47,221 bases of DNA, from the IMG/VR virus record IMGVR_UViG_2660238524_000005; one strand, written 5' to 3'. The notes below the pieces were generated by a model. The model searched no databases, was not told the origin of the DNA, and saw nothing but the letters and a program-made list of their open reading frames with translations. A program made the position numbers and the translations under genes. This DNA is from a virus. Its lineage: Duplodnaviria; Heunggongvirae; Uroviricota; Caudoviricetes. This document shows positions 1-8,881 of this stretch, piece after piece; within the stretch, counting starts at the first letter, position 1, and every line of letters starts with the position of its first letter.

Positions 1-249
1 ATGGCGGCAGCACAACCGCTGGTATTTGATGCAGAACTGGACACCGTGCGTGGGCGTCTTGGTAGCGTAAAAGGCGTTAATTACGATACGGCGATGTGGA
101 GTTCGGCAATTAACAGCCGCAACAACGTGACCACTGATGCAGGCGCTGGCTTTGAGCAAACATTGACGGGGCTAACGCTTGGTATCGACAGCCGTTTCTC
201 CCGTGAAGAAAGCAGCACAACTCAGGCGGGTGTGGTCTGGACGTTCTGA
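1..249 (+). CDS. Autotransporter-like outer-membrane beta-barrel protein, C-terminal fragment (5' end outside window)
   Basis: ORF runs from window edge; C-terminus ...QAGVVWTF ends in aromatic residue with alternating hydrophobic pattern typical of autotransporter barrels; host flank outside the prophage. Confidence 0.4.
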   Translation: MAAAQPLVFDAELDTVRGRLGSVKGVNYDTAMWSSAINSRNNVTTDAGAGFEQTLTGLTLGIDSRFSREESSTTQAGVVWTF

Positions 250-350: not shown

Positions 351-396
351 TGGTCGGCACGAGAGGATTTGAACCTCCGACCCCCGACACCCCATG
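351..396 (-). tRNA. Partial tRNA-Pro(GGG) (proL-like): 3'-terminal 46 nt from anticodon loop to CCA; phage attachment-site core, not an intact tRNA
   Basis: Reverse complement reads CATGGGGTGTCGGGGGTCGGAGGTTCAAATCCTCTCGTGCCGACCA, matching the 3' half of enterobacterial tRNA-Pro as I recall it; upstream 30 nt cannot form acceptor or D arm (would need CGGCACG at the 5' end). Confidence 0.65.
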
Positions 397-611
397 TCAC
401 CGCGCCTGAAACGCTGGAGACCGCGCCATTGCTGGGCTGGCAGGGTGTTTCACTGTGTGCGCAAACAGTGCATAATTCGCAAAATTCACGCTATATACAT
501 CAATGAGTTAAGAGAGATTTTTCCCCACTCCTAAATGGTCAGTTTTTGGAGCATTACTATATTAATAGGTTCCGTCTATAGCACTTTTTGATTTGCTTCT
601 AATATGCTTTT

Positions 612-638
612 CTGTGGATAAGATTTAGTTATCCACAG
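612..638. promoter_or_regulatory. Perfect inverted pair of consensus DnaA boxes (TGTGGATAA-N7-TTATCCACA)
   Basis: CTGTGGATAAgatttagTTATCCACAG; both 9-mers equal the DnaA box consensus TTATCCACA; about 200 bp upstream of the ORF at 835. Confidence 0.45.
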
Positions 639-834
639 ACTTATCTCCTAAGTTTCCGAGCAGCTACATGTTTTTTGTTGATTGTTTTATGTTTGGCGTA
701 AAGTCAACAATTACTTCGCTTTTTGACCATTTTAGCCCATTGGAAATTACGATCATCTTCATGTAACCTTCTAAAACTTACTAAGATTGCAGAAGTTAAA
801 GCAACATAGCTCGTAGTTTCTTAAAGGTGATTTA

Positions 835-1602
835 ATGCCACAGCCGGCGCTAAAAGCGAACGAAATCAGCAGTGAATTAATCGATATTCTTGCGGCTCGG
901 AATACGATATCCGAAATGCAATATTTTCGTTATATCAGAGATATAGAAAAGTTGCGCGACAGCGCATCTGAGGACTATCTCAAAGCGTTGGCTAATGGTG
1001 CTTTTGGGCGTAAAGATACTGCAGTTGCATTCTTTGAAGAAGCATTGAAGCATAACAACCTGATCATTGCTCAAAATTATGTAGTTTATCTCAACGATTA
1101 CGGCAGCTTCCGTGAAGTTGAACAAGTGGTAAATCGATTAGTTGAACGTTATAACTCCCCTACGATGCTGTCCCATGCATGGGAAGCTAACTTGTTCTTG
1201 GGGCGTATTGACAAAGCGCTCTACTATGCTGAGAGATTGATAAGTATGGTAGATGAAAAGGAGGCTGAATTGGTTAAGCACCTCGCAGCCACAGCACTGG
1301 CCCAATCCACGACCTTCAAAAGTGCAACTGGAATTACTGATGAAGAACTACAGGATATTGCAAACCGCATAGTGGATATCATGGCTGACCATAAAGTTAG
1401 TCCTGTTGCTATGTCTTTCTGCTCTATCCCTGAAGAGCGTACGTCATCATATGTCATGGCAGTTAATACTGAAGATTCTGATGTTCTCTCTGATATGAAC
1501 TTGGATATAGCATTTTCTCTTGCAGAAAATGAAAGTTTGATTGGAAAACCCTTCAGCGTATGGTTTGAAGGGCGTTTGGAGGAACCTGCGCGTGCCAGTT
1601 AA
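835..1602 (+). CDS. Hypothetical protein, first gene of AT-rich two-gene cargo operon
   Basis: 255-aa ORF, SD AAAGGTGA 5 nt upstream of ATG; protein-like composition; no family recognised. Confidence 0.6.
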   Translation: MPQPALKANEISSELIDILAARNTISEMQYFRYIRDIEKLRDSASEDYLKALANGAFGRKDTAVAFFEEALKHNNLIIAQNYVVYLNDYGSFREVEQVVNRLVERYNSPTMLSHAWEANLFLGRIDKALYYAERLISMVDEKEAELVKHLAATALAQSTTFKSATGITDEELQDIANRIVDIMADHKVSPVAMSFCSIPEERTSSYVMAVNTEDSDVLSDMNLDIAFSLAENESLIGKPFSVWFEGRLEEPARAS

Positions 1603-1975
1603 TAGTTCCGATTTTATCGCTTTCGCAAAAGATTGTGAAAAGCGTAACGACGAAATTGGTTACAGAAACGCTGTCGCACGTGCGTATTATGGTGCTTATC
1701 ACCACGTACTTCCGTGTTTGACCATGGGGCCGAAAGAAAGTCACCAAGGCCTCATTGACTATCTTGTTAACGATGCTTGGAAGGGTAACGAACCTTTTGA
1801 AAAAAGAGACTTAATTGGTTTGGGGTATGCTCTTCAATCGCTTAAGGATCAGAGAATAGTTTGTGATTACAGACTTAACGACACTATTACGCCAACCCAA
1901 TCAAGCACCGCGATTAAGACTGCAGAGAAATTAATCCAGCGTTGCGCTAATATGACCAAGTCTAAAGCGTCCTAA
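1594..1975 (+). CDS. Small hypothetical protein with R-x6-H motif (HEPN-like?), translationally coupled to upstream gene
   Basis: GTG start with SD GGAGG 7 nt upstream, overlapping the stop of the 835-1602 ORF; motif RAYYGAYH; ORF track gives 1541..1975 from an upstream TTG. Confidence 0.5.
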
Positions 1976-2034: not shown

Positions 2035-2400
2035 TGCGGAAGCATTACCCAATCATATGGTTCCGCGTATAAATTTTCGTTGATTTCGCGTCGCTGTGGG
2101 CTATGAGCCCTTGTGGTCTACTCCCTGTTTATCAAACAAAATGCAGCTAGTGCGCGTATTTTGTGGAATGTGGGGGCGCAGCTCCATCGTCAAATTATTA
2201 CACAAGCCTAACGAATCACGGGGCAATGAAAAGTATGGCTAAGATAGGCAGGTGCGGATACCTCTTTACTGCGTTTGTTATTACGCTCGGTATACGGTGA
2301 ACGATATACGGGCAGGCAACGTTATCGCGACTGTTATCAATAATACGTTTCAGTTTGTCCTCGAACTACATCACAACCGGCTTGAAAACTAATTACTGGA
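2035..2400 (-). pseudogene. Degraded remnant of a tyrosine-integrase 3' region (paralogous to the intact int at 3553-4737)
   Basis: Nucleotide blocks align by eye with int 3608-3920 (e.g. GTATAAATTTT..GATTTCGC.TCGCT.TG and CCTCTTTACTGCGTTT); minus-strand translation gives ...KLKRIIDNSRDNVACPYIVHRIP then loses frame; no ORF of 60 aa or more. Confidence 0.55.
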
Positions 2401-2458
2401 TTTTGTGCCTCCATAATCATATGATTTAAAATGTTATTTTATAAAAAAGGAGTTGTAT

Positions 2459-3415
2459 ATGACCAATTTGTATAAGTTTATGGGAGCGGATATAATTGAT
2501 AAATTGATGATGGATGAAACACATATAGGAATAAAATTCTCTCATTTACATGAATATAATGATCCCTATGAGTTTTTCCTTACTATTGATTTTAATCGCG
2601 GTTCTGATGAGTTAGCATTTTACAATGAAATGATTGGCATGGTTACAAAACAACCAGCAACTTGTTTTACGAAAAGCCCTGTGATACCACCTATGTGGGC
2701 ACATTATGCAGGTAATTCTTCTGGTTTTGTAATAGAGATTAATGAGGAGAAGTTTAAAAAGTATTTGGATGAAATCGGCTTCCAGGATCATAGTTCAATA
2801 GCAGATGTTGAATATAAAGATTCTCCAGATACAGGTATTGAAGACATTCTGGCGAGAGCATTTCATATCTGTAAACCTCGTTATATCTACTGGCTACAAT
2901 CCTGTATAATGACAGCCGCATATTTGACAAAACAAACTTGCTGGAGTTATGAGCAGGAACGTCGCGTAATAATTAATGAGAAAGCACTTACTAAACTGAA
3001 TGACAATCTTATGCTCCTTCCGGTACCGATTAATTGTATAACTGGAGTTATAGTTGGGCACAAATCAAATGATTTATTAAAGCAGAAAATTCAATCTTTA
3101 GCTAAAAAGGCTAAATGTAGATATTTCGAAATGGTAATAGGAAAAACAACAACTACACCATTTCTTTTATCTCAAAATCTCAAATCACACCAATTTATTA
3201 ATGGCAATATAATACCTGCATCAAGGCAATGTAAAAAATGTTATGAGCCTTTAAACATGGAAAATAAAGTTTGTGGCTGGTGTGGAATTACTAATCATGA
3301 TGTGAAAATGGCAGAGTACCGTAATTCATTTCGAATGATAGCCAACTATGGTGGGCTGGATAAATATATATCATCCATGAATAAGATTACTGAAGAGTAT
3401 AATAAGGGTAAATAA
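2459..3415 (+). CDS. DUF2971-family protein with C-terminal CxxC...CxxC zinc-ribbon-like motif
   Basis: LYKF...NDPYEF and PPMWAHYAGNSSGFVIEI motifs characteristic of DUF2971 (from memory); CKKCYEP...CGWCG near C-terminus; SD AGGAG 6 nt before ATG 2459; strongly AT-rich. Confidence 0.65.
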   Translation: MTNLYKFMGADIIDKLMMDETHIGIKFSHLHEYNDPYEFFLTIDFNRGSDELAFYNEMIGMVTKQPATCFTKSPVIPPMWAHYAGNSSGFVIEINEEKFKKYLDEIGFQDHSSIADVEYKDSPDTGIEDILARAFHICKPRYIYWLQSCIMTAAYLTKQTCWSYEQERRVIINEKALTKLNDNLMLLPVPINCITGVIVGHKSNDLLKQKIQSLAKKAKCRYFEMVIGKTTTTPFLLSQNLKSHQFINGNIIPASRQCKKCYEPLNMENKVCGWCGITNHDVKMAEYRNSFRMIANYGGLDKYISSMNKITEEYNKGK

Positions 3416-3552: not shown

Positions 3553-4737
3553 CTAACCGGTTTTAATTTCTCCATGAGGGACAACAATCCAATCTATATG
3601 ATTTTTAGTATAAATTTTAGTAGATTTCGCATCGCTATGTGCCATTCGTCCCTGCGGATCAATCCCTTGTTTATCAAATAGGTGAGCTGCCAAAGCTCTT
3701 ATTTCATGGAATGTAGGTCTTTGTTCCATTGCTAGATGATTGCATAGTCCGAGTTTGTCTCGCACGGAAGAGAATGACCGACTCAAATAATCTGGTGCAA
3801 CTTGAGTTGGGTGCGAAACCTCTTTACTGCGTTTAACATGCCGTTCTGGGATTCTATGAACGACAAAGGGACTGGCCACATTGTCACGGCTATTGTCAAT
3901 TATCCGTTTCAATTCTTCACCAATTGGTATTGCAACATGTGATGCCTCCTTTTTTTGTACTTTTTGCCTATGGATGTATAGTGTACCATATATGCCATTT
4001 TGTGGTTGTTCGAACCAAACACATCCACATAAACCGTCTTTAGGTTCGCGAATTGAGTAACGGATTCGCGATACTTCGAGTCGTGCATGTGTAGTCTGCA
4101 ATGCTAGGTCCATTGCTGTTCTTAACCATGGTGCAGCGGCCTGCCTGATAGCTATAAAATGCTCGAGTGACAGGCGCCGTCTTTTCTTCTCATCAGTCCT
4201 ACGCATTTTTTTTCTGATGGCCGGGTTATCCTGCATTAGTGATTCATCGACCGCATAAGAGAACAACTTTTTAAGAAAGCTGACCTTTCTGTTCTGCACA
4301 TTTGCGGATGCGCTGGCATGATATTTGTTGATGTAGGCATTAACGTGTTCAAGTTCGATATCGCATGCCGGAACATTTACGAAAAACGCTTTTACGCGTA
4401 GAGCGTCATTTTTCCAGTCATCTAAGGTACTCTGGGAAGGTCGTTCGTCTTCGATAATTCTGGCCATTATGTGATCGACATGTTCAGCAAATGGTTTTGC
4501 TTCTCCGGTGACCCCGCCAGATTCTCTAATAAGATTATCCACTGATGGGTATAATTCTGATCGCATCCTCAGGTTGTACTCTCTGGCGATTGCAACGGCT
4601 ATTGCCCGATCCTTACCTATATTTTTCTTTTTTCCGGTAATAAGTGTGAATTTATAAACACCTCGATCTTTATCAAAAACCAGATAATCAGGAAGATGTC
4701 TGTATTCTTTTTTACGTGGCCTTGCCGCCATGGTCAT
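3553..4737 (-). CDS. int: Phage integrase (tyrosine recombinase)
   Basis: 394 aa; C-terminal catalytic region with conserved H-x-x-R and terminal Tyr context (...HEIRALAAHLF...AHSDAKSTKIYTK); adjacent to att core and overlapped by xis. Confidence 0.9.
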   Translation of the reverse strand: MTMAARPRKKEYRHLPDYLVFDKDRGVYKFTLITGKKKNIGKDRAIAVAIAREYNLRMRSELYPSVDNLIRESGGVTGEAKPFAEHVDHIMARIIEDERPSQSTLDDWKNDALRVKAFFVNVPACDIELEHVNAYINKYHASASANVQNRKVSFLKKLFSYAVDESLMQDNPAIRKKMRRTDEKKRRRLSLEHFIAIRQAAAPWLRTAMDLALQTTHARLEVSRIRYSIREPKDGLCGCVWFEQPQNGIYGTLYIHRQKVQKKEASHVAIPIGEELKRIIDNSRDNVASPFVVHRIPERHVKRSKEVSHPTQVAPDYLSRSFSSVRDKLGLCNHLAMEQRPTFHEIRALAAHLFDKQGIDPQGRMAHSDAKSTKIYTKNHIDWIVVPHGEIKTG

Positions 4738-4943
4738 CCCTCATTTATTAACTTGCGAACAGCTTGACTAACCATTGAGTCGACTCCCCATTTTTCTGTT
4801 TCGCAGACAAAAACAGAACCGTCCACGATACGCCCCATGAGCAGACCGTTCTCGACCCAGCGTTTTATCGTTCGGTTGTCAGGAATTGAGCCATTAGAGA
4901 ATTCACGGCGTCCCCATTGGCTCGCTTTCATTAGTTTTGCCAT
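4734..4943 (-). CDS. xis: Excisionase (Xis-like)
   Basis: Small basic protein MAKLMKASQWGRREF...IKRWVENGLL; SD GGAGAAA before ATG at 4943; stop overlaps int start (ATGA). Confidence 0.7.
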   Translation of the reverse strand: MAKLMKASQWGRREFSNGSIPDNRTIKRWVENGLLMGRIVDGSVFVCETEKWGVDSMVSQAVRKLINEG

Positions 4944-6233: not shown

Positions 6234-7058
6234 TCAGGCGGTGAAAGTACCAATAAAGGTTTCTACTTTGCTGTCTTTGAATTTTTCAACAAGCAGATCA
6301 CGAAATTCGTTAGCCATTTCTTCCTGTACTGCTTCCAGCTGAATAATGCGCAGAACCAGTACAGGGCGATCACCAGTGATAATGCTGAGGCGTAATTTAA
6401 ACGGACGTTCTTTCAGGCCTTCAAACGGAACGCATTTAAACTCAAATGCTACTGGCATAATGTCTTTGGTTTTCGCTTCGACAGACTCCATCAGAGAGCG
6501 TTTGCCGCTGAAGTCATTGTCTTCAAAATCAGCGGTCTGGTTTGCTTCAATCGTGATTTTACGGACCGCCGCAGCCGCTTTTGTTGCCTGAATGGCGTCA
6601 CCATTAGCATCAAAGCCCACAAGGTAGTCGGCCCAGTCTTCAATCCATTCTGCCAGTGACTTCTGGGAGTTACGCTCGCCGTTAACAGACAACAGGGCAG
6701 AGAACGGTGCTGTCTTTTTCAGTTTGAGAGTGGCGGTGTTATCTGCGTGACCTGGTTCATCAATAGTACCCAGGTTAAGCACACTGACGGCTCGCATATT
6801 ATCAGCATCGATAAAGCAGCGGGTGCCTTCATCTGCAAGATCTTTAGAATAACGGGTAAAGTCATCGATGCTGGCAGTGGAAAGCGCACCACGGAAACGG
6901 AAGCGATTTAAATTAAATTTTTCCAGATCATGAATGCGGAAATTCTCAGGCAATGCCACAGCATCGGCACCAATCTTACTGATAATTTCATTAACACCCT
7001 GAGCAGAAATAAGGGCATGGATTTGATTAATTGCGGTTGCGTCTAAGTTCTGAGACAT
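6234..7058 (-). CDS. YfdQ-like (DUF2303) prophage protein
   Basis: 274-aa ORF; length and synteny with HD hydrolase match the CPS-53 yfdP-yfdQ-yfdR arrangement as I recall it. Confidence 0.55.
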
Positions 7059-7486: not shown

Positions 7487-8144
7487 TTTGCTGCTCCTCA
7501 TCATATCGACCCTGTAAGGTCGGTTAGTTTCTCCACAAAACAGAGAAGAACACCTGCGGTGGCAGCCGCCCGGATGGATTGGGTTATGAGCCCGTCGTCC
7601 GGTGATGCTCTTCTCTGTTTTGTAAAAAGAGCGGTACCAGCCGGAAGCAAGGGTACAAACTGGTACCGCCAAAGCAGTGGCTGTTGTGGTGGGGTTGTCA
7701 CTCAGGCGTATGGTCAACCTGACAATCCGGTGTCCTCAACGGGGAAAGAGTAACCCCGCCATACTTACCGCCGCGCCATTTCGCGGATTACCACAACGCT
7801 GAGAGCACTTAGCCAGTTACAGCACCACACTTTGTCGCGGCTCCATAAATGCCCTCATCGTTGCACCCTGGTCTCTTCCCAGGCGTCAAACCGAATCGCC
7901 ACGCTGGTTAGGCGTCTTATCAGCATCATCATTGACTTGCACATTCCGGCTACCTGGTTTGTTTGCCCGAGCAAGGAGTGGATTGTCCCCTTTAACGTCC
8001 CCAGACCGCTAACGACGCATGTGCCATACGCCGTGTTACAACCAAATTTTGTTAGTACCTTGTTTGTTTGTCTGGAAAGAAAGATAAAATGAAGTTGCGC
8101 ATTATGCAAGTGTTTTTGTTGCGAGATATGCAATTTAAAGGGTA

Positions 8145-8168
8145 ATGAAAAGCCACCTTTGGGTGGCT
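8145..8168 (-). terminator. Intrinsic terminator downstream of cI (minus strand)
   Basis: GCCACC ttt GGGTGGC hairpin with T-run on the minus strand, about 20 nt after cI stop. Confidence 0.45.
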
Positions 8169-8188
8169 AATTGATGAGGAGGTAAGGG

Positions 8189-8881
8189 TTAATTGTGTCG
8201 CTTAAGGGTTTGTGACTGGCTGATTAAGACCTTTCCAAAGACCATAAACCGGTGTTCATTTTCGCTGGTAATTCCCCATTCACGGTAAATCTGGTTATCA
8301 GAAATCACCAGTAGTTTGTCAGGTATCATTTGCAGTCGTTTGACATAAATTTTATCATCAAAACCAAATACATAGATACCATCTCCATCAAACTGATTGA
8401 TACTGACATCAACGAAGATGAGATCTCCTGGCTCAATGGTTGGACACATACTGTCCCCACGAACGTTGATAACTTTAATGTGATTGGCTGGCCGTCCGCC
8501 AAACATCGATACAGCATTATCAGTTCTGTATTCAATGGCATGAATCACATCAATGACATCACCGCCCTGGATAAGGCCATTTCCCGCACTGGCACTGACA
8601 TCCAGCATTTCAATACGGAATACATCCTTCACCTGCGCAACATCCTCACTAATACTGTTTTTACATACAGTATTACTTTTGACGTCTGAGGTAAAGAGAT
8701 CTGCAATATCAACACCTAAGCTCCTGGCAATATTACTCAGGGCTTGTTCAGTGAATTGTTTCTGCTTACCTGTTTCCAGGCGTGAGATATTCGCCGCATC
8801 CACTCCTATTGCTTCAGCGAGATCGGCGATTTTCATGTTCTTCGCCTGGCGAAGTTGTCTGACTCGGTTTCCTATGTTCAT
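8189..8881 (-). CDS. cI: CI-like repressor (XRE HTH + S24 LexA-type autopeptidase)
   Basis: N-terminal HTH (VRQLRQAKNMKIADLAEAIGVDAANISRLETG) and C-terminal S24 motifs (GDSMCPTIEPGDLIFVD...VKRL); divergent from cro. Confidence 0.9.
   Translation of the reverse strand: MNIGNRVRQLRQAKNMKIADLAEAIGVDAANISRLETGKQKQFTEQALSNIARSLGVDIADLFTSDVKSNTVCKNSISEDVAQVKDVFRIEMLDVSASAGNGLIQGGDVIDVIHAIEYRTDNAVSMFGGRPANHIKVINVRGDSMCPTIEPGDLIFVDVSINQFDGDGIYVFGFDDKIYVKRLQMIPDKLLVISDNQIYREWGITSENEHRFMVFGKVLISQSQTLKRHN

Follow-up and report, generated by a model that had tools for sequence, protein, structure and literature searches.

A decayed integrase fragment between two cargo units of a proL prophage as the probable scar of a fusion between the attachment-site modules of two phages

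We analysed a stretch of DNA of 47,221 nucleotides (nt) from the IMG/VR virus record IMGVR_UViG_2660238524_000005 (Caudoviricetes), hereafter the window, which is essentially identical to Escherichia coli O25b:H4 NZ_CP015085.1. At the left end of the window, the E. coli chromosome meets a lambdoid prophage. The prophage belongs to a family of temperate lambdoid phages of Enterobacteriaceae whose integration site is the anticodon loop of tRNA-Pro (proL). Between the P' arm of the attachment (att) site and the stop codon of the integrase gene (int), these phages have a variable slot, and in the window this slot holds two cargo units, genes A and B and a DUF2971 gene, with the remnant of an integrase gene, int', exactly at their joint. 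We read this remnant as the probable scar of a fusion of two phages' cargo modules. The features of the region are as follows (loci used for comparison carry L numbers):

1–249, plus strand: 3' end of yejO, a host autotransporter gene, the chromosomal flank (an open reading frame, so annotated in matching genomes)
353–403, minus strand: attL core, the 3' ~48 nt of tRNA-Pro(GGG) proL (sequence read directly)
404–535, unstranded: P' arm of the phage attachment site, ending with the motif GTGGGGAAAAA (tRNA-sense), the start of the variable cargo slot
536–834, plus strand: spacer upstream of gene A, part of cargo unit 1, 94% identical to the allele of strain T309.Ta3
835–1602, plus strand: cargo gene A, 255 amino acids (aa), weak TPR-like matches, PHROG 17809
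1592–1975, plus strand: cargo gene B, 127 aa, faint HEPN match, PHROG 5176, overlapping A by 11 nt
1981–2008, unstranded: perfect 12-bp hairpin AAAATTGGCCTC-ATTT-GAGGCCAATTTT between the B stop and the end of int' (read from the sequence)
2022–~2375, minus strand: integrase remnant int', codons ~270–392 of a lambda-type tyrosine integrase, the 3' third of the gene
2359–2385, unstranded: proposed fusion junction zone, int nt ~797–816 joined to the start of the second phage's cargo slot
2386–2458, plus strand: upstream/promoter region of DUF2971, with the motifs CTGGATTTT (2396) and CATATGATTTA (2418) and the ribosome-binding site AAGGAG
2459–3415, plus strand: cargo unit 2, DUF2971 protein, 318 aa, Pfam PF11185 (E = 1.8e-9)
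3553–4737, minus strand: int2, the resident intact integrase, 394 aa, with arm-binding and catalytic domains
4734–4943, minus strand: small xis-like gene, 69 aa, upstream of int2 and kept beside int in all relatives

On the minus strand, positions 2022–2355 align with the 3' end of int2 (3562–3914) at 69.4% identity over 330 ungapped columns, with a local score of 85 against 10.7 +/- 1.4 (maximum 15) for 300 dinucleotide-preserving shuffles (z ~53). When the resident Int was used as a tblastn query on the window, int' was matched in two frames (E = 8e-15 and 7e-9), and the frameshift-corrected amino acid identity was 65% over 138 aligned positions. A frameshift-aware alignment confined the homology to Int residues ~270–392 and placed six frameshifts in int' (at 2286, 2233, 2172, 2140, 2117 and 2055), to which a 15-nt deletion and in-frame stops are added. 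Int' lacks the domains for arm binding and core binding as well as the first half of the catalytic domain, and the catalytic Arg and Lys that lie further upstream are lost with this part; the regions of the HxxR, H and Tyr-nucleophile motifs are readable in the corrected translation (...RPtFHKIRALAA..., ...AHSDAKSTKIYT...). An uninterrupted reading frame for a full three-domain integrase is absent from int', and given this truncation and these lesions it is a pseudogene, not a gene, and a functionless molecular fossil. Integrase pseudogenes are a known kind of object, and this one has already been flagged by automated annotation: in the near-identical NZ_CP015085.1 it carries the PGAP (Prokaryotic Genome Annotation Pipeline) label 'recombinase; frameshifted; incomplete; missing N-terminus' (WLH_RS30540). 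Its value is that of a marker of how the two accessory units of the phage were joined. An earlier note on this DNA had described a decayed integrase fragment at 2035–2400 with the peptide ...KLKRIIDNSRDNVACPYIVHRIP and had suggested a pairwise alignment with the 3' end of int. The fragment is real, its identity lies far above that of random shuffles, and the peptide is present in frame -1; its limits are slightly shifted, the true extent being ~2022–2375, and 2376–2458 is the upstream region of DUF2971, not integrase.

The resident int2 is 87–90% identical in amino acid sequence to the integrases of its relatives, with nonsynonymous differences per site (pN) of ~0.06 versus synonymous ones (pS) of ~0.75, and over int nt 816–1176 it is 67% identical to int'. 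A second allele of the whole block, 95% identical overall and 85–89% identical within int', was found in strain T309.Ta3 (L002), where the remnant has the same 5' boundary as in the window, with one frameshift and one stop only. The closest intact relative of int' is the integrase of L100 (the IMG/VR contig IMGVR_UViG_2576861216_000001), to which the T309.Ta3 remnant is 80.7% identical in nucleotides and 86.8% in amino acids, compared with ~75% to all other family members and 69% to int2; in the 100 nt beside the breakpoint its identity to L100 is 88%. Since int' is only 67–69% identical to int2, whereas the T309.Ta3 allele is 81% identical to the L100 gene, int' is not a copy of int2; judged from these identities, its parent is a different integrase of the same family. 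Between the window and T309.Ta3, 11.2% of the aligned sites of int' differ (d = 0.12), in addition to 26 gap columns, and the synonymous divergence (dS) of the neighbours between the same two alleles is 0.09 for A, 0.12 for B and 0.07 for DUF2971. Int' thus evolves neutrally, its divergence being that of the neighbours' dS; it is not conserved above the neutral rate, as a regulatory element would be. The ratios of nonsynonymous to synonymous divergence (dN/dS) of 0.13 for A, 0.14 for B and 0.07 for DUF2971 indicate that these three genes are under strong purifying selection.

The flanks of int' match phages of the same family that carry a single cargo unit. Among IMG/VR relatives in which both landmarks, arm and int, are present, the slot is empty (13–29 nt) at 11 loci, L100 included, measures 0.3–0.5 kb at two and 1.1–1.75 kb at 12, and reaches 3.0 kb in the present composite only, which is also the only phage with the layout A-B, int', DUF2971, int. 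The order arm, A, B, intact int, xis is found in L015 (Pseudocitrobacter faecalis), L016 (Enterobacter wuhouensis), L022–L025, L027 and L028, with A and B 91–94% and 94–95% identical in amino acids to those of the window in L022–L024 and L027. The order arm, DUF2971, intact int, xis is found in L035, L125–L127 (Klebsiella aerogenes) and L124 (an E. coli draft genome), and the DUF2971 of these single-cargo phages is 81–83% identical to that of the window. All single-cargo A-B and DUF2971 phages have a proL-type core and arm, so that adjacent modules of two elements with the same att site, each known alone, are present in the composite. To the left of int', the hairpin and the spacer between B and int' agree at 89–91% with the spacer that separates B from int in the single-cargo phages L023 and L024; the hairpin, also seen as a stem-loop in a sub-threshold Rfam match, would once have served cargo 1 and int1 as their convergent (bidirectional) terminator. 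To the right, CTGGATTTT and CATATGATTTA, which lie in the 75 nt that separate int' from the DUF2971 start, are kept upstream of DUF2971 in the remnant-free loci L124, L125, L127, L035 and L037. The DUF2971 motifs on one side and the B-int hairpin on the other suggest that the composite consists of an A-B phage's left part, running from the arm to int codon ~270 as read from the 3' end, and the slot of a DUF2971 phage, and the junction zone was delimited from alignments with intact integrases and single-cargo DUF2971 phages. We therefore propose, with a probability of roughly 0.75, that int' is the 3' third of the integrase gene of a second phage, int1, and the scar left where the att-proximal cargo modules of two phages were joined.

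The position of this block relative to the prophage ends bears on where the fusion took place. The tRNA identity of the attL core stops at ...CCCCATG in the anticodon loop, which identifies 353–403 as the att core at attL, and the corresponding part of proL (nt 30–77) matches the equivalent site in related loci. No complete tRNA was found in the window by ARAGORN; the intact tRNA-Pro (attR) lies ~0.8 kb past its right end in NZ_CP015085.1, beside yejM. These two sites make up the only att pair, as no second att core was found in the window at <=8 mismatches in 40 nt, nor by self-BLAST of the arm, and the whole block lies inside the prophage between them. Int' occurs in 53 of 5,426 complete E. 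coli genomes, always at proL and together with A-B and DUF2971, whereas A-B or DUF2971 (>=95%) without int' occurs in none of the 5,426; the same block of arm, A, B, int', DUF2971 and int is present in five IMG/VR contigs. The hosts of the composite include ST131, ST167, avian, porcine, bovine and environmental strains. The presence of the same junction in the T309.Ta3 allele makes it older than a neutral divergence of ~0.12. As far as can be read from these sequences, the fusion is a single, old, phage-borne event, which did not take place in this chromosome or strain.

The earlier note had placed the fragment between the two cargo units and had taken it to explain how unrelated cargo genes came to lie side by side; both points stand, with the fragment exactly at the joint and each unit known elsewhere alone beside an intact integrase of the family. 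It had further held that an older integrative element was captured or overwritten here by serial integration at a tRNA hotspot, and had suggested a search for a second copy of the att core. A foreign, related integrase is indeed involved, and its capture at this tRNA locus or in this strain is not borne out: a block that is common to 53 genomes and five contigs, has the same breakpoint in a diverged allele and lies between the phage's own att sites, with no second core in the window, is a phage-borne unit and no record of serial integration in the strain.

The lone exception to the co-occurrence is strain J2, in which an insertion sequence, IS1, removed everything to the right of the first 305 nt of int'. 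The locus (L003, NZ_CP195980.1, 4836–7916) reads att, A, B, partial int', IS1 and a DinI pseudogene beside an intact tRNA-Pro, and is a natural example of cargo kept after prophage loss. In the T309.Ta3 locus, IS903B lies between DUF2971 and int (7654–8622); the sequence to its right is 99.9% identical to the window and that to its left only 95.5%, which indicates a putative recombination boundary near the 3' end of int.

A fusion of this kind would start from two parents, one phage with the order arm, A-B, int1 and another with arm, DUF2971, int2. One illegitimate joint would link int1 nt ~797–816 with the bases that open the second slot, immediately past the far end of the P' arm, and would remove the 5' two-thirds of int1 and, in a tandem scenario, also the rest of phage 1 and the middle att site. 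We infer, at a little under even odds, that the route was a tandem double lysogen at proL followed by deletion. The tandem would have read yejO, O-P1', A-B, int1, the rest of phage 1, P1-O-P2', DUF2971, int2, the rest of phage 2, tRNA, and a deletion starting within int1 and reaching the end of the P2' arm would have left no middle att site and would have reduced phage 1 to its cargo. The product, arm, A-B, int1', DUF2971, int2, would be of normal size, with one att pair and one working integrase, and could be excised via the outer sites; the composite would keep moving as a phage with two cargo units, and int' would then decay at the neutral rate. Tandem lysogeny plus deletion is the simplest single-event route and, of those considered, the most likely one; it would be the phage counterpart of 'accretion and deletion'.

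Several observations weigh against this account. Decay prevents the junction from being placed to the base, and short homology between arm end and int at the junction is at chance level in a general comparison of arms with integrase genes. Neither an internal att site nor a remnant of one is found between the modules (no core copy, and no arm-like sequence between int' and DUF2971), so that the tandem model needs the deletion to have removed it, and no tandem of two full family prophages at proL occurs among the 5,426 complete E. coli genomes, other collections having been partly sampled. No exact parent was found: the nearest remnant-free DUF2971 genes are 82–83% identical, and the nearest relative of int1 is 81% identical and has an empty slot, so neither is a direct parent. 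The closest A-B phages are 93% identical in nucleotides in A-B, ~60% in arm and spacer and 70–75% at the 3' end of int; with only the cassette similar, A-B and int' need not have arrived together. The P' arm beside A-B is most like that of L006 (avian pathogenic E. coli, APEC, O78), whose integrase resembles int2, not int1, which fits a simple history of tandem plus deletion poorly.

Some of these points would suit another route to the same product, a single illegitimate crossover at short homology, without serial integration and followed by homologous exchange of the backbone, either between two phage genomes that were replicating or had been induced together, or between a resident prophage and a newly arriving phage. 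Mosaicism in the region is heavy, and its breakpoints closely border the cassettes and the arm end: the window and L024 are 93% identical in A-B and ~60% in arm and spacer, the window shares its arm with L006 but not the spacer, and its spacer with L041 but not the arm, and a remnant with its flank is 88% conserved between L008 and L026 next to wholly different cargo. These breakpoints and cargo swaps point to frequent recombinational shuffling in the slot, and the resemblance of the P' arm to that of an int2-like phage is in line with it. Nevertheless, this route takes two crossovers, or the packaging of a recombinant that has the right size, versus one event for deletion in a tandem lysogen; we regard it as possible but rather unlikely. 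Tandem deletion and phage-phage crossover give the same product, and the data do not separate them. A decayed local duplication of the resident gene, a reading that the earlier note had itself raised, is of a different order. Int' is on the same strand as int2, 1.2 kb away and of the same gene family, but the 67–69% identity to int2, as against 81% between the T309.Ta3 allele and another phage's integrase, rules out int' as a duplicate of int2; moreover, the neutral divergence since the two composite alleles split is merely 0.12, and both flanks of int' match single-cargo slots of other phages, which makes a duplication extremely improbable. Retention of int' for a function, as promoter or operator of DUF2971, as antisense RNA against A-B or as a truncated Int-like peptide, might be considered from its orientation, divergent to DUF2971 and convergent to B, and from the open 119-aa frame starting at TTG that some family remnants (L004, L008) keep. 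However, int' diverges at the synonymous rate and gathers indels (26 gap columns; six frameshifts in the window), the conserved motifs upstream of DUF2971 fall outside it, promoter- and terminator-like matches in its region do not exceed shuffles, the B-int' hairpin excepted, and no Rfam family scores above threshold there; the 119-aa frames are gene-caller products begun at the TTG codon of Leu276. Such a function is very unlikely. A family of mini-integrases was also tried as a candidate and dropped: a protein search with the corrected remnant gave only open reading frames of 76–202 aa, which candidate selection and internal TTG starts explain.

The breakpoint itself raises one more possibility, related to how the remnants arise. 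Three lineages of integrase remnants were collected without selection on open reading frame length, and in a gene of 1,185 nt they break within ~20 nt of each other, at a CATG:

Window lineage (window, T309.Ta3): breakpoint at int nt ~797–816, window 2359–2385
S lineage (L004/L005): breakpoint at int nt 799, L004 ~6367–6385
K lineage (L026, L008–L010): breakpoint at int nt 800, L008 ~7976 and L026 ~7654–7660

This coincidence might reflect a site-preferential cut at a core-like site in int (GC/CA-CATG-T, int nt ~799) by the integrase or another sequence-specific process, which would pile up cargo units or leave them in place as att-cargo-int' cassettes. Over the 100 nt adjoining the junction, the window lineage is 88% identical to L100 and the K lineage 87% to L015, and the two are only 71–75% identical to each other; the closest intact integrases thus differ, which argues for independent truncations and makes a single old truncation, later refreshed by homologous exchange, less likely. 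The 6 nt to the left of the junction in S and K (CCCGTC, CCCGTT or ACCGTT), followed by ATG, are like the left attB half-site ACCGTC-ATG, which lies at the natural crossover point of tRNA-Pro, and the neutral evolution of the remnant makes it less likely that selection kept the remnants at their common length. On the other side, the pattern was spotted post hoc with n = 3, and other remnants, picked by open reading frame length, break at nt 760, ~816 (a fusion to a lambda R-like lysozyme gene), ~825 and ~860 (IS605). The flanks beyond ~12 nt are not the 5' half of the tRNA, the window's flank is the upstream region of DUF2971 and not an att arm, the site in int is only weakly similar to the core, and S and K might share one ancestral junction. 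We consider a site-preferential cut doubtful. By the same token, it is a speculative and rather improbable idea that an int hotspot at or near the CATG of codons 266–267 may yield portable cassettes of att arm, cargo and int 3' stub. Two candidates from this comparison were set aside. The remnant of L039, which had seemed to break at the same CATG, is flanked by the lambda R-like lysozyme coding sequence, with its junction ~16 nt further on, and a mini-circle integrated into attB is unsupported for S and K, whose flanks show no tRNA 5' half beyond ~12 nt and no tRNA.

Other members of these lineages show related arrangements. A 3.0-kb S module (L004:3914–6926 and L005:2600–6925; E. coli AR435 and AUSMDU00014361), 99.3–99.6% identical between the two loci, is present in ~47 E. 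coli genomes inside other lambdoid prophages, where it occupies two or more positions: one locus has it behind the tail-fibre genes, the other between hokD and the replication genes. The module contains a proL-type attP-like site (terminator hairpin, 3' half of tRNA-Pro and P' arm), a SMODS nucleotidyltransferase, SLATT, an int' with one frameshift and a 61-aa open reading frame, a layout of arm, cargo, int' and cargo as in the window. Between the K-lineage loci L008 (7976–9983) and L026 (5515–7747), the remnant and its outer flank (88%) and the P' arm (89%) are the same, with a 366-aa gene between arm and remnant in one and A-B homologues in the other; evidently, to judge from this pair, cargo can be swapped while the dead int stub acts as one homology flank. 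In the marine gammaproteobacterium Pseudoalteromonas ardens (L128, 2276–6778), a remnant of the same family (68% amino acid identity) lies at tRNA-Pro, with an Mrr-like gene and two more genes between the int stub and an att fragment, and the att-cargo-int' pattern thus reaches well beyond Enterobacteriaceae.

The P' arm of the window is 88–91% identical to that of the proL prophage of APEC O78, with homology stopping at ~527–535, and 73–83% identical to the arms of other family members. A motif at the arm end, (C/G/T)(A)TGGGGA(A/G)AAA in tRNA sense, is conserved in the window (519–535), L004, L006, L035, L100 and L124; it sits exactly at the start of the cargo slot and resembles the first bases of the core overlap CATGGGGT. 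A candidate homology of the arm end to int nt 793–840 was rejected, local alignments of arm and int being at the level of shuffles in nine phages. The spacer at 536–834 is 82.6% identical to that upstream of A-B in L041. Homologues of gene A adjoin intact integrases in L015, L016, L022–L028 and CFT073, and the A-B pair lies directly beside integrases that belong to two or more unrelated families and differ in integration site (window 835–1975; CFT073, L007, 6201–7389). CFT073 was discarded as a donor: its A-B homologues adjoin an unrelated integrase at another site. The INPHARED phage collection gave only a trivial match of 80 nt. No PADLOC model was matched by A or B, and their distribution is, on the sequence, typical of an uncharacterised phage-borne defence or exclusion cassette. 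The DUF2971 protein matches the PADLOC candidate defence family PDC-S31 (E = 4.9e-22); in the literature, nothing specific was found on DUF2971 in defence or on PDC-S31. Beyond the xis-like gene, the lambdoid early, lysis, head and tail genes follow as a complete set. An insertion of 1,442 nt (31896–33337), missing from the otherwise identical NZ_CP015085.1, contains minus-strand open reading frames of 173 and 283 aa and has the appearance of an IS3-family (IS150-like) element; it splits the tail tape-measure gene, and the prophage in the window's strain is probably defective.

Tandem accretion and deletion at tRNA genes have been described for the Asn tDNAs of Klebsiella (PMC4891358), for Streptococcus suis (PMC5053989) and for tandems of phages with integrative and conjugative elements (ICEs) (PMC13651849). 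As in such accretion and deletion of ICEs, cis-mobilizable elements (CIMEs), integrative and mobilizable elements (IMEs) and islands, the composite has elements with the same att site side by side, has lost one recombination module, with the cargo of that element now joined to the other, and uses the outer att sites. Accreted elements normally keep the internal att site, which the composite lacks; here, moreover, both partners are phages, and the outcome is a compact phage genome with an enlarged cargo slot, after a tandem stage that we infer. Integrase pseudogenes in decaying ('grounded') prophages have been reviewed (PMC6379469) and, like int', are truncated, frameshifted, located beside att and neutral. 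Plain decay products of the same integrase family are found in L011, L128, L129 and strain J2. Int' differs from these in being located inside an otherwise complete prophage with an intact integrase, between cargo units, and marks a fusion rather than the death of an element.

Temperate phages have variable accessory ('moron' or defence) hotspots at fixed positions, such as the b region of lambda beside attP and the hotspots of P2 and P4. Like these, the proL slot has a fixed place between conserved backbone elements (the end of the P' arm and the int stop) and is empty or holds varied small cassettes, and its cargo is of a similar kind, with the candidate defence gene PDC-S31 here and SMODS and SLATT in the sister lineage. 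Unlike these hotspots, it documents a two-cassette state with the joining scar preserved. Secondary-site (abnormal) recombination is known for integrases of the lambda family and could account for a repeated CATG breakpoint that resembles the core crossover point, although the junction partner in the window is not an att arm.

Overall, the composite is a concrete and datable case of an att-side accessory slot grown from one cassette to two, in which the joint is kept and both parental states can be identified. An internal integrase pseudogene of this type can mislead predictors of prophage boundaries and islands into splitting one element in two, and can prompt false calls of serial integration for the host chromosome when the event is part of the phage's own history. 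Should the shared breakpoint of the independent lineages be borne out, it would suggest that phage defence-gene cassettes are built and moved by a sequence-directed mechanism. If the hotspot in int does yield such cassettes, they would be stacked by a second cargo, as in the window, kept after prophage loss or moved to unrelated prophages, as with SMODS-SLATT, and this would amount to an integron-like, integrase-linked assembly of defence cargo in phages.

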